Of a stretch of 64,000 nt of DNA, positions 11,041 through 58,681 are shown one piece after another (within the stretch, counting starts at the first letter, position 1; each line of letters begins with the position of its first letter). This DNA is from an uncultured bacterium. Its GTDB lineage: Bacteria > Patescibacteriota > Doudnabacteria > UBA920. The notes under the pieces are model-generated. The model had not been told where the DNA came from. It searched no databases and saw only the letters and a program-made list of their open reading frames with translations. The stretch is from contig CAVVMJ010000004.1 in NCBI GenBank assembly GCA_963749445.1, positions 93,015 through 157,014 of the forward strand, given 5' to 3'. The translations under genes were made by a program, and so were the position numbers.

Positions 11041-11437
11041 CACAAATGTTTTAATCTCAGCTTTTTTGTTTGAAAAGCGGCTGGGTAAAATAGTCAGGCT
11101 CATAGAACAAGGAGTTATCATTCCTTGTTTTGTTGTATATACGTTTCAGGAATTCCAGAGTGTTTTGGGTTATGAAAAATTTAAACCCGTGGTAAAAGCA
11201 TCCGGCATTGACGTTGGGGAAATTATCCGTCAAATGCAAGACCGGGGAATAATTTTGAATGACCCAAAAATTGTCCCCAATGTGACTCCGGACACGCCGG
11301 ATAATTACGTCTTGGCCGCGGCAAAACTGTCGGAAGCCCAGTTTATAGTGACGGGTGACAAGCTATTATTGTCTTTGAAAAATTTTGAAGGTATTTCGAT
11401 TATAACGCCGCAGGAGTTTTTGCAAAAATTCAGATAA
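11024..11437 (+). CDS. vapC: PIN-domain toxin VapC (likely start MRAVLDTNVLI; ORF track start 10985)
   Basis: AVLDTNVLISAF PIN N-terminal acidic motif, ...IVTGDKLL; 17-nt overlap with vapB. Confidence 0.7.
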   Translation: MRAVLDTNVLISAFLFEKRLGKIVRLIEQGVIIPCFVVYTFQEFQSVLGYEKFKPVVKASGIDVGEIIRQMQDRGIILNDPKIVPNVTPDTPDNYVLAAAKLSEAQFIVTGDKLLLSLKNFEGISIITPQEFLQKFR

Positions 11438-11449
11438 CCAAAATAAAAC

Positions 11450-12283
11450 ATGATTATTGATGGCAAGAAAATTGCGTCCGCGATATTATTAGATTTGAAA
11501 CAAAAAGTCGGCCAATTGCCTTTCCAGCCGGTGTTTTGCGATGTGCTGGTGGGGGATAATAAGGTTTCGGCCAGTTATGTAAGGATGAAAGCCAAGGCCG
11601 CGGAAAGAATCGGGATTAAATTCCGCGCGGCGAATTTTTCGGCAGGTGTCGGCGTGCAGGATCTCATCGCGGAAATCAAATCCATCAGCCAAGAACCCAA
11701 CATGTGCGGCTTGATTGTGCAATTGCCGTTACCGAAAAATTTGCCGCGGCAGGAGATTTTGGATGCCATAAAGCCAGAAATTGACGTTGACTGCATGGGC
11801 AGCAAGAATTTGGCGGATTTTTATCGGGGAAATATCCGTTTTGCGCCGCCCACGGCCGTGGCCATAATGGCAATTTTGGAAAGTTTGGGCGTTGATTTAT
11901 CGGCAAAAAGGTTTTTGGTCGTCGGCCAGGGAGAATTAGTCGGCAAACCGGTGACTTTTTTGTTAAAGAAAAAAGGTTATAATACAGATATCGCGGACAT
12001 CAATACCGAGAATACCGATGAGCTTTTAAAATCAGCGGATGTAGTAATTTCCGCCACCGGCAAAGCGGGACTTATCACCGGCGAAAAAATCAAAAAAAGT
12101 TCTATTATTATTGATGCGGGCAGTTCTGAATCAAACGGCGGCATTGTCGGGGACGCGGATTTTGGCAGCGTTTCATCGGTGGTATCTTATTTATCGCCGG
12201 TCCCAGGCGGCGTCGGGCCGGTGACGGTGGCGATGCTGTTAGGTAACGTTGTAAAATCTGCAAAAAATAAACTAGTCATCTAA
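11450..12283 (+). CDS. folD: methylenetetrahydrofolate dehydrogenase/cyclohydrolase
   Basis: MIIDGKKIASAILLDLKQKV..., Rossmann VVGQGELVGKP, ..PVPGGVGPVTVAMLL. Confidence 0.9.
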   Translation: MIIDGKKIASAILLDLKQKVGQLPFQPVFCDVLVGDNKVSASYVRMKAKAAERIGIKFRAANFSAGVGVQDLIAEIKSISQEPNMCGLIVQLPLPKNLPRQEILDAIKPEIDVDCMGSKNLADFYRGNIRFAPPTAVAIMAILESLGVDLSAKRFLVVGQGELVGKPVTFLLKKKGYNTDIADINTENTDELLKSADVVISATGKAGLITGEKIKKSSIIIDAGSSESNGGIVGDADFGSVSSVVSYLSPVPGGVGPVTVAMLLGNVVKSAKNKLVI

Positions 12284-12368
12284 CAGTAACCGATTTCGGA
12301 AAATCGGATAAATCAGAAAAATCGGAAGCTCCGATTTATCCGACCTCCGACCTCCGACCTTCCGAACC

Positions 12369-13223
12369 ATGTCCAACTTTTTTATCCATCTTAACATCCT
12401 CCTCAACCGTTTTTTGATGTTTTTGGGCGTGCGCCGGCAGGGTGAGCGGTGGGGAATAGTTTATGACAGCGTCAGCAAAGAGCCGCTGGATCCGGTAATC
12501 GTCTGGCTGGTTGACGCCAAAACCGGCAAGCTCACGCAGACTTCGGTGACAGATTTGTCGGGTCGGTATAATTTTTTGGCCTACCCGGGCAAGTTTAAAA
12601 TTTTGGTCAGGAAAAGCAACTACAACTTTCCGTCGGCGTTGTCGGCCGGCGACCACGACGAAATTTACCGCAACCTTTACCACGGAGAATTTTTTGAGCT
12701 TTCGGGCGACAGCGATGTTATTCCGTTTAACATCCCCATGGATCCGGCCAGAGACGATTGGAACCAAACGGCCAAAAAGCCACTAATGTCTTTTTCGCCC
12801 TATGCCGAAAATTTGCTTGATCACCTGGCCTCGGTTCTGTTTTGGTTTGTTTTGGCGCTGGCCTTGGTGGCTTGGTATTTTAGGCCATCGTCCATAGTTT
12901 ACGGCTTTTTGATTTTTTACGCCGCGGTTTTTGTGCTGGCGCTGTTTTTGCCCAGGCCCCGCTGGTGGGGCAGGGTGTGGTTTAAGAAAACCGGCAACCC
13001 GGCATCCGGAGATGTCTTAGAACTTAGCTATGCCAAAATGCCCGAGGTCATTGTGGCTAAGGCCAATATTTACGAGGACGGCAAGTTTTTTTTGCGTTTG
13101 GACCCGGGCAAGTACATCTTGGAAATTAAAAACTATCCGCCCGAAGGAGGGGCCGCGGTTTTGTACAGGCGAACTTTGCGGGTTGGTTTGGAGCAGGTGG
13201 TGAATCGGGAGTTTGCAATTTAA
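12369..13223 (+). CDS. hypothetical membrane protein with CarboxypepD_reg-like beta-sandwich segments
   Basis: two TM helices flanked by beta-rich segments (..LSGRYNFLAYPGKFKILV.., ..GKFFLRLDPGKYILEI..). Confidence 0.35.
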   Translation: MSNFFIHLNILLNRFLMFLGVRRQGERWGIVYDSVSKEPLDPVIVWLVDAKTGKLTQTSVTDLSGRYNFLAYPGKFKILVRKSNYNFPSALSAGDHDEIYRNLYHGEFFELSGDSDVIPFNIPMDPARDDWNQTAKKPLMSFSPYAENLLDHLASVLFWFVLALALVAWYFRPSSIVYGFLIFYAAVFVLALFLPRPRWWGRVWFKKTGNPASGDVLELSYAKMPEVIVAKANIYEDGKFFLRLDPGKYILEIKNYPPEGGAAVLYRRTLRVGLEQVVNREFAI

Positions 13224-13249
13224 GGGATTTTTGCTATAATTAATTCATC

Positions 13250-13648
13250 ATGTCACAAAGAAAGAAAATCCTCTTGGTGGAAGACGATAACGCTTTACGC
13301 GCCACGCTTCGCGACCGGCTGCAGGGAGCGTATGAAATTTTTGAAGCCCCGGACGGCGAACTGGCGGTTTCCCAATGCGTTGACCACCGGCCGGACTTAA
13401 TTCTCCTGGATTTGCTGCTGCCCAGGCTGGACGGCTTTAAGGTTTTGGAGCGGATTAGGGCTTATCCCGACGCCAATGTGGCCAAAACGCCGGTGATTGT
13501 GTTGAGCAACCTTTGGAGCCAAAAGGACATATTGCAGGTCCAGGGCCTCAAAGTTAACGAATACTTTGTCAAAGCCCACACCAAAGTGGAAGATGTCGTG
13601 GTTCGTATCCGCGCGGTTTTCAAAAACAGCCCGGTTGGGCGGGTTTGA
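13250..13648 (+). CDS. stand-alone response-regulator receiver domain protein (paralog 1 of 3)
   Basis: KILLVEDD...D(LILLD)...PVIVLSNL...YFVK; CheY-like, no output domain. Confidence 0.85.
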   Translation: MSQRKKILLVEDDNALRATLRDRLQGAYEIFEAPDGELAVSQCVDHRPDLILLDLLLPRLDGFKVLERIRAYPDANVAKTPVIVLSNLWSQKDILQVQGLKVNEYFVKAHTKVEDVVVRIRAVFKNSPVGRV

Positions 13649-18345: not shown

Positions 18346-18432
18346 AAGATTGACATGATTGAACAAGATTGACAAGAATGGTATGCTAATCTTGTCAATC
18401 TTTTAATTCATTTAAATCTTGTCAATTTCTTC

Positions 18433-18867
18433 ATGTACGACGATTCAAGCAAAAAAATTTTGGTGATTGAGGACGATTTGGACTACCGCAAATCCCTATA
18501 TGATTTGCTCGGCCACGAATTCAGTTTTATTGCGGCCGATGACGGCGAGCAGGGGATAGAGCGTCTGTTGGTGCACCGGCCGGATTTGGTAATTTTGGAT
18601 TTGTTGTTGCCCAAAATTGACGGCTTTGAAATTTTAAAAAGGATCCGCGAATACCCGGACGAAGGCATTAAAAAAACTCCGGTCATCGTATTAAGCAATT
18701 TGGCGGGTAACGAAGATTTTGTCAAGGCGCAGAATTGGAAAGTGGAGGCTTATTTTGTCAAATCCCATACCGAACTGGCTGAAGTCAAAGCAAAAGTCAA
18801 AGAGGTGGTCTATCAGGGCACCGGCGGTCCCAAAGAAGAGGTCATGGATTTTCGGGATATAGCGTGA
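18433..18867 (+). CDS. stand-alone response-regulator receiver domain protein (paralog 2 of 3)
   Basis: KILVIEDD..DLVILD..PVIVLSNL..YFVK. Confidence 0.85.
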   Translation: MYDDSSKKILVIEDDLDYRKSLYDLLGHEFSFIAADDGEQGIERLLVHRPDLVILDLLLPKIDGFEILKRIREYPDEGIKKTPVIVLSNLAGNEDFVKAQNWKVEAYFVKSHTELAEVKAKVKEVVYQGTGGPKEEVMDFRDIA

Positions 18868-49667: not shown

Positions 49668-50590
49668 ATGAAAATTATATTTTTCGGCACGGCGAACGTG
49701 GCGCTGCCGATTTTGGAAAATTGAATAAGCAACATCAAGTTTTGGCCGTGGTCACCAATCCCGATGCCGCGGTCGGCCGGTCGCAAAGTCTAGAGGAAAC
49801 GCCAGTTTCGGCTTTGACTAGGGATTTAAAATTGCCCACATTTAAGCCGGAAACGGTTAAAGACAACCAGGAATTCATCGGCCAGCTAAAAAATCTCGGA
49901 GCGGATGTGTTTGTGGTCGTGGCTTTCGGCACCATTATGCCGGCGGAAGTCATAAATATGCCACCGTTAAAAACCATAAACGTGCATTTTTCGGCGCTGC
50001 CCAAATACCGCGGGCCGTCCCCCATCCAGTCCGCTTTGCTCAACGGCGACAAGCAAACCGGCACCACAATTTTTATTTTGGATGAACAAATTGACCACGG
50101 GCCGCTGCTGGCCCAAAAAATCGCGGACATTGAACCCGATGACAATTATTTTACGTTATCGGACCGGCTCGCCCACGTGTCCGCGGATTTATTGATGGAA
50201 ACATTGTCCGATTATCAGCCGGGCAAAATAACTCCCCTGCCCCAGGATGAATCGCAGTCATCGTATACTAAAATTATTACCAAGCAGGCCGGAAAAATTG
50301 ACTGGACCCAATCAGCCACTCAAATTTACAACCAGCTGCGGGCTTTTTACATTTGGCCAGGGATTTGGACAACGTGGAAGGGCAAGAAAATTAAAATTCT
50401 TGATATTCATCCGACGGGAAGTTCGTCGGATGCCGGAAATCCCGGCACAGTACTGCCAGGAGGCAGGGTTTTGTGCGGCGGCAACACCATCCTTCAAATC
50501 AAAACGCTCCAACCGGAGGGCCGGAGCGAGATGGATATTGACAGTTTTTTGAATGGGTACCGGGATTTTGTTGGGAGCAAACTGGAATAG
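49668..50590 (+). CDS. fmt: methionyl-tRNA formyltransferase, apparent -1 frameshift at ggaaaattg (~49716-49722)
   Basis: frame A MKIIFFGTANVALPILE then frame B (L)NKQHQVLAVVTNPDAAVGRS...HFSALPKYRGPSPIQSALLNGD; joined matches Fmt N-terminus. Confidence 0.85.
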
Positions 50591-50647
50591 CCTAATTGAA
50601 AGATTTAAAGATTGAAAATTGAAAGACTGCGGAAATTAAGGATTTTT

Positions 50648-50815
50648 TAAAATTTTATTGGTGTCATCCCGGAATTTTTCGCGTACCGGATTATTATCGG
50701 CCGCGAAAAATATCCGGGACTCAGTATACGGTATCTGGATTCCAGATATTTTTGATATTTTTGGTTGCCGATGATTTTCCAATTTTAACCAAAAATTCCG
50801 GAATGACACAAGGGC
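50648..50815. repeat. CCGGAATTTTT hairpin-repeat family, composite copy
   Basis: gtgtcatcccggaatttttcgcg...cgcgaaaaatatccgggactcag...ccaaaaattccggaatgacacaag. Confidence 0.7.
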
Positions 50816-50824
50816 GGATTTTTT

Positions 50825-51616
50825 TTATTTAAGGTATTTCTGTTTGTTTATCAAGTGCTCGTCGTAAGTCCCGGCAAACACAGCCTGGCCGGTTTTGGGG
50901 TCGGTCAAAAAGTAAAAGTAATTGCTGGCGGTCGGATACAGGGCAGCCATAATGGAAGACAGTGAAGGGTCGCAAATCGGCCCGGGCGGCAGGCCAAGAT
51001 TGTTGTAGGTGTTGTAATCCGGCAGGCTTTGTTGTTGGCTAAAGGCTACGGTAGCGTCGCTCTGTAGAGGCATTTTGGCGTTGAGTCGGTTATAAAAAAC
51101 CCCCGAGATCATCGCGCGGTCTTCGGTTTTGCCTGACTCTTTTTCTATGATTGAGGCCAGCGTAACAATTTGGTAGGCCGTCATTTTTTGCTTGGCCGCC
51201 TGCTGTTGCATATCAGCCGTAAACTTTACGCTAAAGTTATCCACCATTTTTTTAATGATTTCACTGGCCTGAAGGCTTTCATCGGTCTGGTAAACTGCCA
51301 CGCGGTAAGTGTCCGGAAACAAGAAGCCTTCCAAACCGGCGGTTTTTGGCTTGGACGACAGGATTGGGTAAGCGGAGACATCAAACTTTCCAGCAGCGTT
51401 TAAAAAATCGCTTCTTTTTAACAGGCCCTTTTGTTCCAGGTAATCGGCGATTTGCGCGTTAGTCCAGCCCTCGATAATCGTTATTTGCGTTTCCGGCGCT
51501 TTGGCTTCTTGCCGCTGTTGCCTGAGGTTTTGCCTGTATCGGAAAAGGCCGTAGCCAATGAGGCTACCGCCAACAATCAGAAATATAAAAACGGTAATGG
51601 CGATTTTTTTAATCAT
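50825..51616 (-). CDS. mltG: endolytic murein transglycosylase MltG/YceG
   Basis: N-terminal TM; YceG-like core (..GLEGFLFPDTY.., ..LASIIEKES..). Confidence 0.85.
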   Translation of the reverse strand: MIKKIAITVFIFLIVGGSLIGYGLFRYRQNLRQQRQEAKAPETQITIIEGWTNAQIADYLEQKGLLKRSDFLNAAGKFDVSAYPILSSKPKTAGLEGFLFPDTYRVAVYQTDESLQASEIIKKMVDNFSVKFTADMQQQAAKQKMTAYQIVTLASIIEKESGKTEDRAMISGVFYNRLNAKMPLQSDATVAFSQQQSLPDYNTYNNLGLPPGPICDPSLSSIMAALYPTASNYFYFLTDPKTGQAVFAGTYDEHLINKQKYLK

Positions 51617-52053
51617 TCCCCGATAATCTTAAGTCGCACTTCGCGCGTTCGGCCGCCGTCGGTTTCCACAAAGAAGATGCTTTGCCTGCCGCCGAGCACC
51701 AGCTGGGCTTTTTCCACAATCAGGCTTTCCGACGAGCCGAGCAAAAAAGCCTTAACATGCGCGTGGCCGTTGGAGCGCTCGTTGGGCGCCACGTTTTGGC
51801 GCACTTCAAACAGGTCGTGGCTGTAGCTGATATCCAGCGGCACCAGGCGGTACAGGGTTTTCATGATGTCCTGCATCAGCAGAGGCTCGTTGTGGTTAAG
51901 GCGCACCGCGGCTGTGGTGTGCGGGCAAAAGATTACCGCGATCCCCTCTTTGACGCCCGATTCAATCACCGCGGTTTGGACATAGGAGGTAATATCCACC
52001 AGTTCAAATTGCTTTTTGGTTTCCAGATTGAGTTTTTTAGAGTAGGTTTTCAT
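51613..52053 (-). CDS. yjbQ: YjbQ/UPF0047 family protein
   Basis: ..IFCPHTTAAV..NE...D...H..HV.. conserved pattern. Confidence 0.7.
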   Translation of the reverse strand: MKTYSKKLNLETKKQFELVDITSYVQTAVIESGVKEGIAVIFCPHTTAAVRLNHNEPLLMQDIMKTLYRLVPLDISYSHDLFEVRQNVAPNERSNGHAHVKAFLLGSSESLIVEKAQLVLGGRQSIFFVETDGGRTREVRLKIIGE

Positions 52054-52181
52054 AGGGTTTTGATTTATTTTTAAACGATTTTATTTAGCCAAATTGCGAT
52101 ATTCATCACCATTGATGATCTGAAACAATTTTTTTGCGAGCCAGACATTTCACTTTAAAGCGTTGGGTTAATTATAGCACA

Positions 52182-53835
52182 TTAAGGTTTGGCGGCGGGA
52201 ATATTTTGGTTTTGCGCCAAATCCAGCAAAGTGGTTTTGGTGAGGTTGGTATGGATGGGGACGGTAAAGATGAATTTTGAGCCTCTTCCCTCCCCCGTGC
52301 TTTCAGCCCAGATTTTGCCTTTGTGCTGCCCAATTACTATTTTGGCCACGTAAAGGCCGAGTCCCAGTCCGGCGCTTTGGTTAATTGACCCCTTGCCGCG
52401 GGTGTATTTTTCAAAAATCAGCCCCTGTTCTTCGCGCGCAATGCCCTTGCCGGTGTCGGCAACTTCAAAACGCAAATCATTGCCGTCTTGCCGCAGCTGA
52501 ATGCGGATAGTGCCTTTTTTGGTGTATTTAATCGCGTTATCAATTAAATTATTCATAACCTGCCGCAGTTTTTCCTTGTCCGCCATAATTTTGGGTAAAT
52601 GGTTTACGGGCGGCTGGTAAACAAGTTCCAGATGTTTTTCCTGGGCAATCGGCTGGAGCTGTTCCAAAGTAATATTTGCCAGTTCGGCCACGTCGGTTTC
52701 CTCAAACAAAAATTCCATTTTGCCGCGCTCAATGCGCGAAACGTTAAGCATATCGTCAATTAAGGAAATCAGCGAATTGTTGGTGCGGAAAGTTTTTTCT
52801 ATAATCTCCTTGGTTTTCCGCCTCCAGCTTGCCGTAATCTCCGGCCAAAATCGCGGCCAAATACCACTTAACCGTGGCCGGCGGGGTGCGCAGCTGATGC
52901 GAGGCGATGGAAATAAACTCCGCCCGCGCCTGGTCCAGGATTTTAAGCTGCTCGTTGGCGGCTTCCAATTGTTTGGTCAAAATTTGCAATTGCTCTCTTT
53001 GTCTTACCTCAATAAGTACGCTTTTGATCAAGAATATGCTGAATATTAAAATGAGAAGGCCGATAATGCTTTGCAGTATCAAATTTGTGAGGTCTTTTGC
53101 CAAAAGTATTTGCCACAAGCTGGTGAATAATAGGAAGAAAGAAGCGATTTCCGTAGCAATAACTTTTATATTTAACAATTTATGCCTCAGAATCGCATAT
53201 GAAGTCGCGATAATGGTGGGCATAACGTAGAATGGCGAATAGATGGTGAGGGATGAGTTATTAAATAGTACTATAGCCAGATAGAGGAAGGATAAGATAA
53301 AGGTGTACGTTAGAGTCAGGCCGATTGAAATCGATCTCCACTGTTTTTTTTCCAGTCCAACGGAAGCTATGTATTTTTTGATCATCAGGTAAAAAGTCAA
53401 CAGGGAAGCGCTAAGAATGGAGAAGCCGTAGTAAGGCATCAGTATTCCCGTTTGCGGCAACGGAATATTATTAACAACGCCCACCGTTTTAAAAATAAAA
53501 GGCGTCAACGGCAGGATTGTTAGTGAACCGCCCCAGACCAAAAGCAGTAAGAGATCTCTTTTTTTGACAATAAATTCCTGTTTTGGAAAATTATAGACAA
53601 AGAGAAAAAATGAAAAAATAGTCGGTATGGCAAAAACCATTACCAAGCGGATCCATTGCAAAGATTCCATTGGATTTATTGTCAGGGCCAAATAATTGCA
53701 AATGAGCCAGCCGCAGTTGGACAGCGAGTGAATCAAAAATAAAACATTGGTTTTACTGCTGGTATCGTGCAAGTAAACCAAAAAACCTAAATAGACAATA
53801 ATGAATGCCGACAGGCAGGTTAAAAAAAGATTCAT
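52182..53835 (-). CDS. sensor histidine kinase (7TM sensor + HisKA + HATPase), apparent frameshift near 52780-52790 splitting ORFs 52756..53835 and 52182..52751
   Basis: H-box SIASHQLRTP; after shift ..NNSLISLIDDMLNVSRIERGKMEF.. X-box; N/G1/G2 boxes (NLIDNAIKYT, DTGKGI, GLGLGL). Confidence 0.75.
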
Positions 53836-53836
53836 T

Positions 53837-54982
53837 CTATTTTTTCCGTTTAATTTGGCGAAGCGGTTGGCGTGTTGTTTTTTTGACTAGCCAAGTTTTT
53901 GTAGCGGCTTGTGTTAGGACAGTTGGCTCCAGACTGTATCGGCCGCTTGGGATTTTTGTTCCCAAAAGTATATGCCTGGTTAAATAGGCCAAAACCGCAC
54001 CGCTTAGGCTGGCTGCAGACCCCAATTGTGGCCAAGCGAATAGCGTTTTGCCGATTTCACGCAATGACTCCTGCACGCGCGGAGGCATATTTTCCTGCCC
54101 GATGATCCTTGTGACCAGTTTGATGACTTCTTGCGGTTTATAATGTGTGAATTCTTCCATGGTAAAATCTCCGAGCAGCCCATTAAAAATTTTTAAGTTT
54201 TGATCTAAGTCATAGCGTTCAATATCCACTATCCCCCATTCCCCAACATCGGTGGCCATAAGAAGTGCGGTTTTAGATTGTCTGGCTTTGAGACGCAGCC
54301 GGATTTTCATCTCCAGGCTGTCTACTTGGTCAATTAGAAGGTCAGATGCCGGAATTTTGTCGGCTTTGTCGCCATCGACAAACTCATCCAGGTTACTGTG
54401 GGTTAGTCCTTCCGGGTAAATAAAAATATTGGTGTACGGATCAATCTCGGCAATTTTTCTGGCAAAATAAAGTGCTTTATTAGTTCCGATGGAGGAAAAA
54501 CCCGCGGGTAAACGGTTAAGGTTAGAGCCAGATATTTCGTCGAAATCGGCCAATTTGATATTTTTTGCTCCGCCAGTCAGCGCAATAGAAAGGGCGGCGT
54601 GGCTGCCGACGCTCAATCCGGCAATGGCCACGGTGCTATTATAAAATTTTTGCTGCTCTGCGCTCAGGATCATATTTTTGTTGCGTGCGGTGCGGATTTC
54701 CTGATGCAAATCCGGTTCCAGATAATGGACAAGAGTTTGCTTCCAGTCAAAGTAAAACCAGACGCCGCACTCTCCCAGTTTTTTACCTTTTTTGTGATTG
54801 TCTATAAATTTCGCTAAGCTTGTCTCATGCCCTTTTTTAAACCGGTATTTGGGGTTTCTGATAAAAAATAATTCTTCCAGCAAATTTTGGTAATAATCAT
54901 GAATAAGACGAACCGGGTATTTCCTTCGGAAGTCCCGTAATTTTTTTTTAGTCGGGTCAAATGTAATTAATTTAAATTTCAT
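53837..54982 (-). CDS. ThiF/MoeB/E1-like adenylyltransferase-family protein with N- and C-terminal extensions (start MKFKLITFD, ATGA-coupled to upstream gene)
   Basis: Rossmann VAIAGLSVGSHAALSIALTGGAKNIKLADFDEISGSNLNRL. Confidence 0.7.
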   Translation of the reverse strand: MKFKLITFDPTKKKLRDFRRKYPVRLIHDYYQNLLEELFFIRNPKYRFKKGHETSLAKFIDNHKKGKKLGECGVWFYFDWKQTLVHYLEPDLHQEIRTARNKNMILSAEQQKFYNSTVAIAGLSVGSHAALSIALTGGAKNIKLADFDEISGSNLNRLPAGFSSIGTNKALYFARKIAEIDPYTNIFIYPEGLTHSNLDEFVDGDKADKIPASDLLIDQVDSLEMKIRLRLKARQSKTALLMATDVGEWGIVDIERYDLDQNLKIFNGLLGDFTMEEFTHYKPQEVIKLVTRIIGQENMPPRVQESLREIGKTLFAWPQLGSAASLSGAVLAYLTRHILLGTKIPSGRYSLEPTVLTQAATKTWLVKKTTRQPLRQIKRKK

Positions 54983-54984
54983 GG

Positions 54985-56496
54985 TCAGATTTTGGCTGGC
55001 GTTGCCTGTTTTTGCAACCATTTTTGTTTGCTCCCGCTTTTAAAATATTTTTCGTGATTGTAGTCCCAAAAAATTAAGCGCGGCCTGGTTCGTTGGATTA
55101 AAAGATGCTTGGTCAGTTCTCTATATTCAGAATTGTTCTCTAAGAGGTTATTTACTATGGCATGCTCTGTGGATTCTTGTAGTTTTAAAGTGCTACCATG
55201 GCTGGGTTTTAATTCTAAATTAATTTCAAATTGTTGGTTTTGTTTGCGGTCGTAGACCACCGCCATGCTGAATTTGCCGGTGAGGTATTTTAAGAGCTTT
55301 TTATTTTCTAAGGCTTGCTTGATGGTTTGGGGGTAAATTTGGAGGCCATAAAAGCTTACCGAGAAATCATTTCGTTCGTATAAGGAAACGAGAGGGAGGC
55401 TTTCCAGTTTAATATGTTTTGCCTCTGCTTCTTTTGCCAGATTTATGCCGAAAGCCGCAAATATTTTTTTAACCCGTTCTAAATCCATCACGTTGCCTGT
55501 ATCCCCTATCTGATAGCGGATCAGCGGCGTGGCGCTGTCTGCGGTCAGAAACAATTCCCCGTTCTCCTCCTCAAAAGCAGCAAACAGCGGGTTAAATTGA
55601 CCTAAAGTGGGAACCTTGGCTCCATGCTTGAAGATTTTTTGAAAAATATTGGGGTATTTAAGTGCCAAACGTTTAATGAGCATGCATGTCGGGGTTTCCC
55701 AAGCGATTACGCCGGCTTCGCTGCATCCGTACATATTTCCAGTATCACGATAAGGATCTCTCATGCCAATTTCGGCGGCGAGGTAGTCGCGGAAGTTTTC
55801 GGTAAATGTTTCCCCGCCAAACAGCAAGCGCAGGTGCATTTTTTTAAGATTAATGTTTTGCTGTTTTGCCTCGTCGATAACGTCTTTAATAAACGGTGGG
55901 TAGCCGACTAAAATTACGGAATCGTATAAAGGGGCGAGTTTTGTGAAGCTTTTAAAAATTTCAATTTTGTTTATGCCCGTAGGGATGATACTAACAATAC
56001 AACCGCGCTCTCCCGCCAGAGTGACAGCATCATATGTAAGAACACCGGCTAGCCATAAGCCTAACCCGTAGGCGTCTATAAACAAGGTTTTGGTGTTGGG
56101 TTTACCCAGCTTTAAAAAATACTCAATCCACGTGGAATACTGCCGGGCTAGATTATTGCTGCGGTAAAAATATACTGGCATTCCGGTGGAACCTGAGGTC
56201 GCGCATAACGACAGTCCTTTAGTTTTAAAAATGTTCGGCCATGTCATCTCGTGAAGGGGAAAGATGCGAAAATAGTTATTTTTATTCATCGCCGGCAATC
56301 CTTTAAAATCTTGGTATGATTTTATTTTTTTTGGATTGATTTTGTGCTGCTTGAGAAATTTTCGGTAGGCTGGCACGTTTTGGGCGGCATGCTGGAAAAG
56401 CTTTAGGCTGATACTTTGTTGCTGTTTTTGCCAGAAATTGCAGCTTTTGATGCCGTAAAACTTAAATAATTGTTTAGTATTCAATTTTGGGTTCAT
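54985..56496 (-). CDS. PaaK/LuxE/F390-synthetase-like adenylate-forming enzyme
   Basis: ATSGSTGMPVYF (P-loop-like AMP-binding motif of PaaK family), ..YGCSEAG.. Confidence 0.6.
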   Translation of the reverse strand: MNPKLNTKQLFKFYGIKSCNFWQKQQQSISLKLFQHAAQNVPAYRKFLKQHKINPKKIKSYQDFKGLPAMNKNNYFRIFPLHEMTWPNIFKTKGLSLCATSGSTGMPVYFYRSNNLARQYSTWIEYFLKLGKPNTKTLFIDAYGLGLWLAGVLTYDAVTLAGERGCIVSIIPTGINKIEIFKSFTKLAPLYDSVILVGYPPFIKDVIDEAKQQNINLKKMHLRLLFGGETFTENFRDYLAAEIGMRDPYRDTGNMYGCSEAGVIAWETPTCMLIKRLALKYPNIFQKIFKHGAKVPTLGQFNPLFAAFEEENGELFLTADSATPLIRYQIGDTGNVMDLERVKKIFAAFGINLAKEAEAKHIKLESLPLVSLYERNDFSVSFYGLQIYPQTIKQALENKKLLKYLTGKFSMAVVYDRKQNQQFEINLELKPSHGSTLKLQESTEHAIVNNLLENNSEYRELTKHLLIQRTRPRLIFWDYNHEKYFKSGSKQKWLQKQATPAKI

Positions 56497-56507
56497 AGAG
56501 GCGACGG

Positions 56508-57524
56508 CTAGTTAAAAATTATTTGTGTCAAGGGTAAGCGCGGCGCAAACGGCGGGATTTTTTCGCAATATCCTAAACGGAAAAAAAGTTGAGGCCTCTC
56601 ATTGATATTCAGCAGTTGTTGCAGCCTGCGGAAATGGTTGCCAATTTCAATTGGCGCTGCCAGCAACGCGAGTCGCAAATTTTGGATTTCCGTTTCCACC
56701 GCCATTTTTTCAAAAATATCCCCGCACCGGAGCCACGCGGCGGCGTTGTCTTCAGGCGTGCTTAAAACCATAAAAGCTTGTGAGGCATAAAGCATGTCGC
56801 CGGCCATTTTGGACTGGCTGCCGCCCAAAGGTAGATGTTTAATAGCCCAAGGCATAAAAAAAGAAAACACCCAAGGAATGCCGATATTGTAGCCTGGCAT
56901 GCCGTCCGTGTATTTTTTCAAGCTGGGTTTGATCCAACGCGACAATTCATCAATGAACGCTTTATCCTTAAAGGCATCTGTTGTGGCTTGTTCCGCGATT
57001 GTTTGCGCGATCTGTTTTTGTTTCGCGTCGACGATGGCATCGGCACGGACATCTTGTCCAGCAATATCGATAATTTTTTGTAGGGTTTGTTCGGCGATGG
57101 GGCGATTGTCATATTTGAACCGGTTGCAGCGGCGGGTTAAAATAGCTTTAAGCCGGATTGCGTCATAACGGGAAGGCGTTAGATTGGTAAAGGAGACTAC
57201 GGCGATGGGGATATCACTGGAAGCAGGCTGAGGTTTTAAGTTGTATTGGTAATTTAAGCCCAGGGCATCCGAAGCTATTATCACGTTGGCTAGTGCGGCT
57301 CCGAGACTGATATAAAACTCCCGCCCTGTCGGATCGGAAGCGGCTAGTTTTCTGGTCCAGTTCGCCCAAAGTTCAATAGTTTGGCCGGCGCACTTAAAAA
57401 GCCAAGGTTGAGTGTTATGGCTGGAAGGCGCGAGTGTCGCTAAAAATGTCAAATAACGAAGCTTTTCTATATCTGGCAGTCCAGCAAAGTGCTCTAATGC
57501 TATATAGTTTGTTCGCGTATACAT
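56508..57524 (-). CDS. nitroreductase-family protein (tandem nitroreductase fold; SagB/Acg-like)
   Basis: LAPSSHNTQPW motif, 338 aa consistent with double nitroreductase domain. Confidence 0.55.
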   Translation of the reverse strand: MYTRTNYIALEHFAGLPDIEKLRYLTFLATLAPSSHNTQPWLFKCAGQTIELWANWTRKLAASDPTGREFYISLGAALANVIIASDALGLNYQYNLKPQPASSDIPIAVVSFTNLTPSRYDAIRLKAILTRRCNRFKYDNRPIAEQTLQKIIDIAGQDVRADAIVDAKQKQIAQTIAEQATTDAFKDKAFIDELSRWIKPSLKKYTDGMPGYNIGIPWVFSFFMPWAIKHLPLGGSQSKMAGDMLYASQAFMVLSTPEDNAAAWLRCGDIFEKMAVETEIQNLRLALLAAPIEIGNHFRRLQQLLNINERPQLFFRLGYCEKIPPFAPRLPLTQIIFN

Positions 57525-57616
57525 TTATTTTTATTTTTTTATCTTTTTGGAAGGGTTTCCCCTTTATTATAGCATAAAAATAGAATATATGCTATAATCT
57601 GCCAGAGGGGAGAAAC

Positions 57617-58021
57617 ATGCCAGAATTGAAACAAAAGAAAATTTTAGTGGTGGAGGACGATTCGGCTATGCGGGAGATTGTTACCCACAAGCTTATCTCC
57701 CACGGTTTTGCCGTTAACCAGGCGGAAGACGGCCGGCAGGCCTTGGAGGTTTTTATCGCGGAAAAGCCGGATTTGGTTTTGCTGGATTTGCTGTTGCCGG
57801 AACTTGACGGTTTTCACGTGCTGCAAGCTATCCGGAACAATCCCGATTTGGCTTTGGCCAAGACGGCCGTGATTGTGCTAAGCAACCTGTGGAGTAACAA
57901 GGATATTTTGAGCGTTCAGGCATTGCATGCCGACGCGTTTATGGTCAAGGCTTATTTTACGACTGAAGAGATTTTGGCCAAGGTCAATGAGATTTTGCTT
58001 TTGCACGAAAAAACCGGTTGA
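57617..58021 (+). CDS. stand-alone response-regulator receiver domain protein (paralog 3 of 3), divergent from HK operon
   Basis: KILVVEDD..DLVLLD..AVIVLSNL.. Confidence 0.85.
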   Translation: MPELKQKKILVVEDDSAMREIVTHKLISHGFAVNQAEDGRQALEVFIAEKPDLVLLDLLLPELDGFHVLQAIRNNPDLALAKTAVIVLSNLWSNKDILSVQALHADAFMVKAYFTTEEILAKVNEILLLHEKTG

Positions 58022-58027
58022 CGGTTG

Positions 58028-58126
58028 TTGATGGGCACCTTCGTGCCAATACATCACTCGACCGTTATTTATCACTAACCGATAATTATCAGTTGGATTT
58101 TGTGGAACCGCGAAGGCGCCCATCAA
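58028..58126. mobile_element. MITE-like 99-bp element, copy 8 (diverged right TIR)
   Basis: ttgatgggcaccttcgtgccaatacatcactcgacc...gtggaaccgcgaaggcgcccatcaa. Confidence 0.8.
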
Positions 58127-58365
58127 ACTCTAGGGACTGCTGCACTAACCTGTTGGTAAAGTTAATCGATAAACGGCAAAATTATCGATAAACGCTAATG
58201 TTTACCGGCGCTTGATGATTAACTGATTAGCATAAAAGCAAAACTGATTTCATAAACGAAATTAGTAACGAAAAAATACACAAAATCGCCTGTAGCTACA
58301 GGCGATTTTGATTTATCCACCAACAGATATATGCACCAGTCCCAAACTCTAAATTCATCCATCCA

Positions 58366-58398
58366 AATCAAAAACCCTCCGAACGCCGGAGGGTTTTT
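58366..58398. terminator. bidirectional rho-independent terminator downstream of hup
   Basis: aaaaaccctccgaacgccggagggttttt. Confidence 0.7.
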
Positions 58399-58408
58399 AA
58401 AATTGCGA

Positions 58409-58681
58409 TTACAGGATGCTGTCTTTGGCGGCTTTGGCTACGCGGAATTTTACCACGGTCTTGGCGGCAATCTGGATGCTTTCGCCGGTCGCGGGGTTTC
58501 TGCCCATTCTGGCGGCGCGGTGCTTCTTTTGCAGTTTGCCCAAACCCGGAATGGTGAATTCGCCGGACTTTTTGGTTTCGGCGTAGGCGATGCCCACTAA
58601 CGCGTCCAGCATTTCGCCGGCTTGTTTGCGGGTCACGCCGAGCTTGTCGGCCAGGGCCTGCAAAGTCTCTGACTTGGTCAT
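58409..58681 (-). CDS. hup: DNA-binding protein HU
   Basis: ..GEFTIPGLGKL....RMGRNPATGE.I.I....V.F. Confidence 0.9.
   Translation of the reverse strand: MTKSETLQALADKLGVTRKQAGEMLDALVGIAYAETKKSGEFTIPGLGKLQKKHRAARMGRNPATGESIQIAAKTVVKFRVAKAAKDSIL

Follow-up and report, generated by a model that had tools for sequence, protein, structure and literature searches.

What pathway could be encoded by four adjoining bacterial genes whose combination matches no textbook system? The question is raised by a 64,000-nt stretch of contig CAVVMJ010000004.1 from an uncultured member of the Doudnabacteria (below, the window), in which four open reading frames (ORFs) lie side by side on the minus strand. They encode a nitroreductase-like flavoprotein, a PaaK-like ligase, a ThiF-like protein, and a histidine kinase with a seven-transmembrane (7TM) sensor region (Table 1); genes were called from ORFs, and families were assigned with Pfam and NCBIfam. 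An initial annotation had framed the group in terms of azoline- or azole-forming and peptide-modifying pathways. Our analysis points elsewhere: the cassette is probably a variant, specific to Patescibacteria, of the pathway to oxazolones (azlactones) or N-acyl dehydroamino acids. The pairing of a ThiF-like enzyme with a flavoprotein of the flavin-dependent oxidase (FDO) type, and its chemistry, are already known. What is new is the context, namely the ligase, an optional dehydrogenase or aminotransferase, the split of cyclase and FDO, and an operonic 7TM kinase. Its acylating enzyme is the one defining feature that sets the cassette apart from all described oxazolone clusters, and no earlier description of the cassette in Patescibacteria was found in the searchable literature.

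Cassette enzymes and the predicted pathway

The ThiF-like protein matched NCBIfam NF005901, the Rv1355c family, over model positions 23 to 338 (the N-terminal half) with an E value of 1e-90. This match was far stronger than those to the ThiF, MoeB, or TcdA models, and the scores for the ThiF and MoeB equivalogs fell far under their cutoffs. Rv1355c is also called MoeY, and a reference to MoeY-type fusions in the initial annotation thus proved a sound lead. Residues 43 to 352 were 35% identical (E = 3e-62) to the N-terminal half of our reference, a PGAP-named Rv1355c family protein encoded on a plasmid of Mycolicibacterium sp. TY66 (L088). Kept between the two were the GLSVG glycine loop, DFD..SNLNR, NK, the Asp of the adenylation motif (D-S-L), and WPQL; the first four, the ATP-binding and adenylation motif residues, were invariant among 28 homologues. 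The protein contains one cysteine, which is not conserved, and no CxxC zinc site. Its AlphaFold2 model had a predicted local distance difference test score (pLDDT) of 86.8, with AclA of Tenacibaculum discolor (9egb), ThiF, MoeB, MccB, PaaA, and TcdA as the nearest solved folds. Extra domains had been proposed at both ends. The N-terminal one was borne out, since the first ~100 residues form a confidently modeled domain common to Rv1355c family proteins (AlphaFold2 and NCBIfam); the C-terminal one was not, the last 25 residues being a low-confidence basic tail. From the NCBIfam match and the comparison with one Rv1355c family protein, we place the ThiF-like protein in the Rv1355c/TrzS cyclase clade and take it, judging by its sequence, to be an oxazolone-system cyclase with an intact adenylation motif.

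The experimental precedent was missed by the initial annotation: TrzS, TyzBC, and OxzB are oxazolone synthetases that act on N-acyl amino acids, and the chemistry of a ThiF-like enzyme with a nitroreductase-like partner is therefore known. TrzS (Rv1355c) carries out an ATP-dependent cyclization and then an O2-dependent desaturation of N-acyl-tryptophan to give N-acyl tryptazolones; the D217A substitution abolishes cyclization, and R540A impairs desaturation (PMC12856293). The same oxazolone chemistry, acting through a ThiF-like enzyme and an FDO, has been described for TyzB/TyzC of Mycobacterium tuberculosis (PMC10404671) and for OxzB of Pseudoalteromonas rubra (bioRxiv 10.1101/2020.06.11.147165; PMC12596934). 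In all described cases of oxazolone biosynthesis, which was discovered between 2021 and 2025, the N-acyl amino acid is supplied by an N-acyltransferase resembling GNAT enzymes or N-acyl homoserine lactone (AHL) synthases (PMC12856293, PMC10404671, bioRxiv 10.1101/2020.06.11.147165).

Actinomycete relatives of the same ThiF clade are found on plasmids of Kitasatospora (L086, 5152-8036) and Streptomyces (L087, 5929-7703). They show 31 to 36% identity, N-terminal domain included, and the Kitasatospora protein has an additional N-terminal region of ~280 aa. Their genes are followed by one for a ketoacyl-acyl carrier protein (ACP) synthase III or a GNAT family protein, with no FDO listed nearby; the cyclase therefore combines with various acylating partners.

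The second feature of oxazolone systems, a nitroreductase-superfamily FDO adjoining the ThiF-like gene, is likewise present. For the three enzymes, searches with hidden Markov models (HMMs) had been proposed as a check. The flavoprotein of the window scored 221 bits on NF047509, the Acg family FMN-binding oxidoreductase model (cutoff, 199), and partly matched the C-terminal (FDO) half of the Rv1355c family model. Its alignment to the MsAcg structure 2ymv spanned the entire protein (E = 4e-12). Its earlier description as a tandem nitroreductase-fold protein was correct as to family; its type is Acg/FDO and not SagB. APS..N.QPW, RxxxR, and three glycines are common to all 72 cassette flavoproteins, the TrzS-family FDO domain, and MsAcg, a comparison confined to generic FDO motifs, with Arg540 and Gln651 of TrzS being numbered for the M. 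smegmatis enzyme.

Two length classes of the flavoprotein occur in cassettes. The short class (~320 to 338 aa), to which the window protein belongs, has its best scores with the Acg model. Members of the long class (~346 to 365 aa) match the whole length of the FDO domains of ThiF-FDO fusion models; an example from the same slot of a sister cassette (L002, 8667-9722) scored 243 bits on PRK14851 and 201 bits on the Rv1355c model. Class appears to track gene order, with the short form mostly where the flavoprotein gene precedes that of the ThiF-like protein. A genuine TrzS-family FDO domain itself reaches 121 bits on the Acg model, and the TrzS authors name MsAcg as the nearest homologue of solved structure for their FDO domain (PMC12856293), so that "Acg family" is in effect a general FDO label. 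Locus L002, from a Doudnabacteria metagenome-assembled genome (MAG; GCA_037200925.1), also shows the kinase gene followed at 11420-13488 by COX2- and COX1-family heme-copper oxidase genes with overlapping stop and start codons; these are of interest because the desaturation by characterized FDOs needs O2.

The mycobacterial proteins Acg, Rv3131, and Rv3127 (FDO-B enzymes of the DosR regulon) have no known substrate, and their genes do not lie beside ThiF-like genes, whereas the Acg-like gene of the window is locked to a TrzS-like cyclase. If the window flavoprotein is FDO-B-like, it would be the first FDO-B so linked. An Acg-like flavoprotein tied to a defined pathway may in turn inform work on the Acg/Rv3131 dormancy proteins of M. 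tuberculosis.

The ligase had no Pfam match, and its NCBIfam matches to PaaK and F390 synthetase were weak and far under cutoff (63 bits against 646 for the PaaK equivalog TIGR02155), although source annotations label it "phenylacetate-CoA ligase." Its AlphaFold2 model (pLDDT 87) had PaaK1 (2y27) as the top Foldseek match, with an E value of 2e-24 and template modeling scores of 0.69 and 0.81; other structural neighbors were BT_0428, the PaaK-family ligases 6six and 6siy, AjiA1, ClxA, HCL, and the amide-bond synthetase McbA. The protein recognized earlier, from its SGSTGMP motif, as a second adenylating enzyme is a PaaK-fold enzyme but not a PaaK orthologue. The TSGSTG P-loop, YG..E, GD.GG, and the C-terminal KQ.W lysine were invariant in 28 homologues; therefore, the ligase should be competent for adenylation. 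PaaK-fold enzymes can form bonds independently of coenzyme A (CoA), NatL2 making an ester and ClxA an amide or ester (PMC7204872, PMC12519233). In NatL2, AjiA1, and ClxA, the acid is adenylated and passed directly to an oxygen or nitrogen nucleophile, which starts a benzoxazole heterocycle (PMC7204872, PMC9400959, PMC12519233). The window ligase is only 14 to 16% identical to these three, exceeds them by ~70 aa, and constitutes a separate family.

From these assignments we infer the following route. The ligase would activate a carboxylic acid by adenylation and join it to an amino acid through the amino group of the latter, probably with no need for CoA; the resulting N-acyl amino acid, an amide, would feed the cyclase. 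No N-acyltransferase of the OxzA, TyzA, TrzA, or NasY type was found in the window cassette, among the Pfam-annotated neighbors of 6 loci, or in the recurrent ORF families of 80 loci (whole genomes were not searched). Since this enzyme is missing and a PaaK-fold ligase is present, we propose that the ligase step stands in for the OxzA/TyzA/TrzA reaction of known systems. In many relatives, the acid would probably be a 2-oxo acid; a Trp/Leu-type dehydrogenase or a HisC-like aminotransferase would derive it from an amino acid of hydrophobic or aromatic character, as gene positions and fusions suggest. By close homology to TrzS, for which this step has been demonstrated, the free carboxylate of the N-acyl amino acid would be adenylated by the ThiF-like enzyme, and ring closure by the amide oxygen would give a 5(4H)-oxazolone. 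The Acg-type flavoprotein, a homologue of the FDOs TyzC, OxzB, and TrzS, would then desaturate the C-alpha/C-beta bond. Finally, the 7TM kinase may either sense the lipophilic product, in an autoinducer-like loop, or control its synthesis. In cells without fatty-acid synthesis, an ATP-dependent ligase is a sensible replacement for an acyl-CoA-dependent acyltransferase, and a 2-oxo acid donor suits such cells. The three or four enzymes are small and soluble and could be expressed heterologously, so that the product could be identified without cultivating the host.

Conservation of the cassette and its kinase

The ligase has more than 1,000 close homologues. The best 120 were all ~500 aa long, 42 to 100% identical, and without a Pfam domain. 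Named hosts were Doudna-, Wildermuth-, Wolfe-, Kaiser-, Lipton-, Magasanik-, and Vogelbacteria and Paceibacterota, all of them Patescibacteria. A species-level scan with one genome per GTDB species located ligase loci in at least 573 genomes, and again every confidently named one was from Patescibacteria. When 1.84 billion cluster representatives (50% identity) were searched with a profile, 788 matched at E values of 1e-30 or below.

Linkage was assessed in 80 loci with HMMs built from the window and three relatives, and counts were taken from 44 nonredundant loci with at least 6 kb on each side of the ligase. The ThiF-like gene was present in all 44, the flavoprotein gene in 42, and the HisKA_7TM kinase gene in 41, always on the ligase strand; 40 loci had all four genes together. 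Less frequent were a Glu/Leu/Phe/Val-family (ELFV) dehydrogenase (18 of 44), a cassette-type receiver (13 of 44), and a HisC-like aminotransferase (7 of 44; 11 loci overall). At least five gene orders were seen: ligase-ThiF-flavoprotein-kinase, ligase-flavoprotein-ThiF-kinase, flavoprotein-ThiF-ELFV-ligase-kinase, ThiF-ligase-flavoprotein-kinase, and flavoprotein-ligase-ThiF-kinase, the last being that of the window and its nearest relative, L005. Thus, selection acts on co-location, and the arrangement is not a frozen operon. Recurring in hundreds of genomes with shuffled orders and with gene fusions, the linkage is more than chance. The suggestion of the initial annotation that this is a conserved biosynthetic cassette outside the textbook has therefore held, and conservation of the neighborhood in related genomes, on which it had made that suggestion depend, was strong.

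Where present in the 44 loci, the ELFV dehydrogenase gene lies directly upstream of the ligase. The closest solved relatives of the enzyme are a tryptophan dehydrogenase (5b37, E = 2e-62) and leucine dehydrogenases. In loci that lack it, the same slot directly upstream of the ligase can be filled by the class I/II, HisC-like aminotransferase. This looks like nonorthologous replacement and points to an interconversion of amino acids and 2-oxo acids that feeds the ligase. Neither gene is part of the cassette in the window or L005, and the cassette HMMs detected no ELFV dehydrogenase gene anywhere in the 64 kb.

Four kinds of fusion protein were among the top ligase profile matches (Table 1), and such fusions place dehydrogenase, ligase, and cyclase in a single pathway. 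The genes next to them encode the flavoprotein, an alpha/beta-hydrolase, and the HisKA_7TM kinase, and all named sources are Patescibacteria/Parcubacteria. The order of the fused domains suggests the reaction sequence dehydrogenase, ligase, cyclase.

The kinase belongs to this conserved set. Among 36 orthologues, its 7TM sensor region was as conserved as the catalytic core, with a mean pairwise identity of 37% compared with 39%. Sensor domains are not usually so conserved, and the pattern agrees with a ligand that is itself conserved, possibly the lipophilic product; it is equally possible that the kinase acts as a conventional regulator. In L001, L002, L004, and L092, the cassette is flanked by orthologous receivers.

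Patescibacteria have tiny genomes, little biosynthetic capacity, and an episymbiotic lifestyle, and the product of the cassette would bear on their chemical communication. In the CqsA/CqsS, LqsA/LqsS/LqsR, and LuxM/LuxN systems, genes for small-molecule synthases are linked with those for a multipass membrane histidine kinase and a receiver. The coupling of synthase and kinase in the cassette is similar, by analogy only, as the synthases of those modules have no homology to the cassette enzymes; the cassette product, predicted to be lipophilic and hydrolytically labile, may be likened to the AHLs of autoinducer modules. Taken further, the cassette might be a self-contained, lineage-wide signaling circuit of the candidate phyla radiation, in which dehydrogenase or aminotransferase, ligase, TrzS-like cyclase, and Acg-like desaturase make a product that the 7TM kinase detects and the receiver relays. 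The signal, an oxazolone or dehydro-N-acyl amino acid, would serve as an autoinducer or between symbiont and host. We put this forward tentatively and consider it rather unlikely as a whole. If true, it would reveal such a signal in organisms to which hardly any secondary metabolism is attributed, would give oxazolones their first physiological role, and would hint at what the Acg family does. That role is a major unresolved question for the discoverers of oxazolones, who call the biological function unknown and mention signaling as a possibility (PMC12856293, PMC10404671, PMC12596934); the cassette offers a testable hypothesis.

Known systems and competing explanations

The closest known counterpart is TrzAS (Rv1356c/Rv1355c) of M. 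tuberculosis, M. smegmatis, and Rhodococcus jostii, which makes N-acyl tryptazolones (PMC12856293). Shared with it are the cyclase clade, the N-terminal domain, the ATP motifs, the pairing of the cyclase with an Acg-like FDO, and, by expectation, the chemistry of ATP-dependent cyclization and subsequent desaturation. However, the window encodes cyclase and FDO in separate genes with the ligase gene between them, its FDO is only distant kin of the TrzS FDO domain, and its host is not a mycolic-acid actinomycete. It has a PaaK-fold ligase where TrzAS has the TrzA-type N-acyltransferase, and a 7TM kinase is linked in the operon. OxzAB of P. rubra and TyzACB (Rv2336-Rv2338c), which make tyrazolone and phenazolone, likewise use a ThiF-like enzyme and a nitroreductase-superfamily oxidase on an N-acyl aromatic amino acid, and TyzB and TyzC are separate proteins, like the cyclase and FDO of the window. 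In contrast to the cassette, they draw on an acyl-CoA or acyl-ACP donor through a GNAT/AHL-synthase-like enzyme, and their clusters lack dehydrogenase, aminotransferase, ligase, and kinase genes.

A similar ThiF-nitroreductase pair with optional tailoring occurs in the NAS-ThiF-nitroreductase (plus methyltransferase) clusters linked to N-acyl dehydrotyrosines in Planctomycetota, Pseudomonadota, and Bacteroidota (stieleriacines, thalassotalic acids, and kyonggic acids), whose end products are possibly ring-opened dehydro-N-acyl amino acids and not oxazolones (PMC12479983). The hallmark NasY synthase of these clusters is absent from the window cassette. Some Patescibacteria cassettes carry a candidate methyltransferase (sub-threshold) or an alpha/beta-hydrolase, comparable to that tailoring; the hydrolase could conceivably open the oxazolone ring.

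Several observations weigh against the oxazolone pathway or its signaling role. All of the enzymatic steps rest on homology or gene context, and no product has been observed. The substrates of the ligase and its use of CoA are predictions of the same kind, the direction of the dehydrogenase or aminotransferase is not fixed and could supply the amino acid instead, and, the search having covered loci, an unlinked N-acyltransferase may lie elsewhere in the genomes. Characterized FDOs require O2, and many Patescibacteria are thought to be anaerobic fermenters. By BLASTP, the window flavoprotein was only weakly similar to the TrzS-family FDO domain (E = 0.011), scoring 24 bits against it and 57 bits against MsAcg; other cassette flavoproteins score the opposite way, and 37 of the 72 are ambiguous between the ThiF-associated FDO-A group (subclusters A4, A8, and A23) and the Acg-type FDO-B group by BLAST with these two references. 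According to Grigg et al. (PMC10404671), the FDO-B enzymes of M. tuberculosis, which are of the Acg type, have no link with oxazolones.

The signaling arm has difficulties of its own. A receiver lies near the cassette in only ~30% of loci. In the window, moreover, the kinase frame shifts by 1 nt at ~52810-52822, which splits the gene into two ORFs, HisKA_7TM and HisKA falling on the first and HATPase_c on the second. The earlier assignment of a 7TM sensor kinase therefore stands for the domains and fails for a single intact gene. The frame changes around GGAGGCGGAAAACCAAGGAG (52790-52840, minus strand), and tblastn with the intact L005 orthologue placed the switch at GDYGKLEAE|KTKEIIEK, with 74% identity before it and 68% after it. 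Both halves are well conserved without further stops, and the kinases of relatives are intact. The frameshift is either a very recent inactivation or an assembly or sequencing error, and the sensing arm may thus be inactive in this genome.

Could the same enzymes make something else? The carboxylate of the ligase product might be adenylated by the ThiF-like enzyme and attacked by a nucleophile other than the amide oxygen. The outcome would be a lactam, an imidazolone- or pyrazinone-type ring (arising from an intermediate that is dipeptide-like or 2-oxoacyl), or an intermolecular amide, then oxidized by the flavoprotein. This is a serious alternative. The acylating enzyme is unlike those of all characterized oxazolone systems, the window flavoprotein is distant from characterized FDO-A domains, the actinomycete ThiF relatives beside ketoacyl-ACP synthase III and GNAT genes suggest chemical versatility, and ThiF-like enzymes tend toward neofunctionalization (PMC12596934). 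We nevertheless hold it to be unlikely: the window protein is close to TrzS over its whole length, N-terminal domain included, and all ThiF-FDO pairs characterized so far make oxazolones or dehydro-N-acyl amino acids. Modification of a macromolecule, be it activation of a ubiquitin-like protein, maturation of an azole-containing ribosomally synthesized peptide, or TcdA-like cyclization of tRNA (ct6A), is extremely improbable. The ThiF/E1 fold does resemble MccB, PaaA, and TcdA, and the N-terminal domain aligns loosely with the peptide-clamp region of MccB and PaaA in some Foldseek alignments, but the same domain occurs in TrzS-family enzymes acting on small molecules, the flavoprotein is not of the SagB type, and the lone cysteine and missing CxxC site do not suit such a role. 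As the initial annotation had noted for the window, no YcaO, ubiquitin-like or other beta-grasp (ThiS/MoaD), or precursor gene was found in the cassette or related loci; E2 and JAB genes were also absent. No conserved small ORF emerged when 4,852 unassigned ORFs from the 80 loci were clustered, which yielded only antisense artifacts inside housekeeping genes. The two intergenic regions suggested as sites of a precursor or beta-grasp gene (52053-52182 and 57524-57617) held only unconserved ORFs of 25 to 32 aa. With these results, the azole and peptide-modifying framing falls away. Modification of tRNA of the ct6A type was rejected, and so were two further candidates: a ubiquitin-like or sulfur-carrier E1 (ThiF-ThiS or MoeB-MoaD), for want of a beta-grasp partner, a CxxC site or conserved cysteine, and equivalog scores near the cutoffs, and thiazole/oxazole-modified microcin machinery, for want of YcaO and a precursor and because the flavoprotein matches Acg/FDO models and not SagB.

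The "phenylacetate-CoA ligase" label of source annotations, together with a dehydrogenase of the Trp/Leu/Phe type, could be read as an energy-yielding module for amino acid catabolism, in which a dehydrogenase or aminotransferase works with a PaaK-type acyl-CoA ligase and the ThiF-like and flavoprotein genes are unrelated neighbors. We regard this as very unlikely, given the low score of the ligase on the PaaK equivalog, the lack of a 2-oxoacid oxidoreductase or decarboxylase in the cassettes, the presence of the two supposed bystanders in 42 to 44 of 44 loci, and the ligase-ThiF and dehydrogenase-ligase-ThiF fusions. Phenylacetate catabolism itself was rejected on the fusions and the universal linkage. 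A different question is the role of the kinase, which with the receiver may be an ordinary co-operonic two-component regulator that switches the pathway on when it meets an external stimulus (oxygen, membrane stress, or host contact, for example); the product would then be a membrane lipid-like or protective metabolite and no signal. We consider this quite possible, though short of probable. Among the roles proposed for oxazolones is one in stress-linked physiology, and these compounds are found mainly with the cells (PMC12856293, PMC10404671). In addition, the receiver has no output domain and is not near most cassettes, TrmB-type regulators occur near the cassette in 9 loci, and the window genome apparently tolerates a broken kinase. 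Against it stand the unusually well conserved 7TM sensor and the placement of the kinase gene behind the final biosynthetic gene, with a shared strand, in 41 of 44 loci, a linkage retained even in the rearranged sub-lineage with fused genes. This explanation concerns the kinase only and is compatible with an oxazolone pathway.

Gene layout and minor features

Table 1. Features of the window and of related loci
Feature	Source	Position	Strand	Details
NTR, nitroreductase-like flavoprotein (Acg-type FDO)	Window	56508-57524	minus	338 aa; SHNTQPW motif; predicted desaturase step
PaaK-fold adenylate-forming ligase (ANL superfamily)	Window	54985-56496	minus	503 aa; SGSTGMP motif
ThiF/E1-like protein, predicted ATP-dependent cyclase (Rv1355c/TrzS clade)	Window	53837-54982	minus	381 aa from supported start; long ORF to 55021
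HisKA_7TM sensor histidine kinase, frame-split	Window	52182-53835	minus	ORFs 52756-53835 and 52182-52751
Single-domain response regulator	Window	57617-58021	plus, divergent	Receiver only, no output domain; Pfam Response_reg, E 2e-20
yjbQ (UPF0047)	Window	51613-52053		Downstream of cassette; Pfam/NCBIfam
mltG (YceG)	Window	50825-51616		Downstream of cassette; Pfam/NCBIfam
Divergent intergenic region with inverted repeat	Window	57525-57616	none	92 bp, between flavoprotein and receiver genes
Fusion, ELFV dehydrogenase-ligase	P0254			847 aa; four MAG accessions
Fusion, ligase-ThiF	P0257			863 aa
Fusion, ThiF-ligase	P0355			880 aa
Fusion, dehydrogenase-ligase-ThiF	P0317			1242 aa; two independent NCBI assemblies
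Alpha/beta-hydrolase (Abhydrolase_1)	L089	9732-10607
Alpha/beta-hydrolase (Abhydrolase_1)	L091	7681-8556
Alpha/beta-hydrolase (Abhydrolase_1)	L092	3767-4648
Extra ORF	L015	13701-14615
Extra ORF	L023	9830-10879
Extra ORF	L040	5340-6281
Extra ORF	L046	4218-5147
Extra ORF	L047	4202-5143
Extra ORF	L049	17688-18644
Extra ORF	L060	14889-15821

The tight packing described initially was found for all four ORFs, with junctions of 11, 2, and 1 nt. The stop codon of the flavoprotein gene is separated from the ligase ATG (56496) by 11 nt, and the ThiF-like gene, ending in TAG (53839-53837), abuts the kinase ATG (53835) with 1 nt between them, as had been noted. An ATGA overlap reported at 54982-54987 was not there: the ligase TGA (54987-54985) is followed by CC and the ATG of the ThiF-like gene (54982-54980), a spacer of 2 nt. 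This start is favored by the alignment of 28 homologues; an alternative ATG at 55021 would create a 37-nt overlap and add 13 residues without a counterpart in relatives. An independent Logan assembly (L085) was 100% identical to positions 53049-58161 of the window and ends before the kinase frameshift; it therefore confirms the three enzyme genes and not the frameshift. In the region 50500-58500, predicted promoters (17 versus 13.4 in shuffled sequence) and terminators (14 versus 12.7) were not above expectation and thus say nothing on operon structure. An Rfam scan of the whole window gave no family at gathering score, be it of a tRNA, an rRNA, or a riboswitch.

A perfect 11-nt inverted repeat (57566-57576 and 57588-57598) lies in the gap between the flavoprotein and receiver genes. 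Its arms are ATTATAGCATA and TATGCTATAAT, each reading TATGCTATAAT on its own strand. Each arm resembles an extended -10 box (TGnTATAAT), and the two face opposite ways, back to back. The repeat may thus be a pair of putative back-to-back promoter elements, as its sequence suggests, or it could be an operator instead. A generic promoter scan of this divergent region was not above shuffled background.

Additional genes accompany some cassettes. In the sub-lineage with fused ligase and ThiF genes, the alpha/beta-hydrolase (291 to 293 aa) always lies between the biosynthetic genes and the kinase, and in two loci of this sub-lineage bactofilin and DAGK_cat genes follow the kinase. Seven loci have an extra ORF of ~304 to 349 aa between the flavoprotein and kinase genes; its 313-aa representative in L047 had no significant Pfam, NCBIfam, or PDB match, with hints of a methyltransferase staying below threshold.

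Pfam supported the earlier calls of yjbQ and mltG downstream of the cassette and of the divergent stand-alone receiver at 57617. A true 4-nt ATGA-type overlap of stop and start codons does occur in the neighborhood, between yjbQ and mltG (51613-51616) and not between the ligase and ThiF-like genes. Further receiver-type ORFs are located on the plus strand at 13244-13645 and 18373-18864, with 132 and 111 bits, respectively, on the cassette-receiver HMM.

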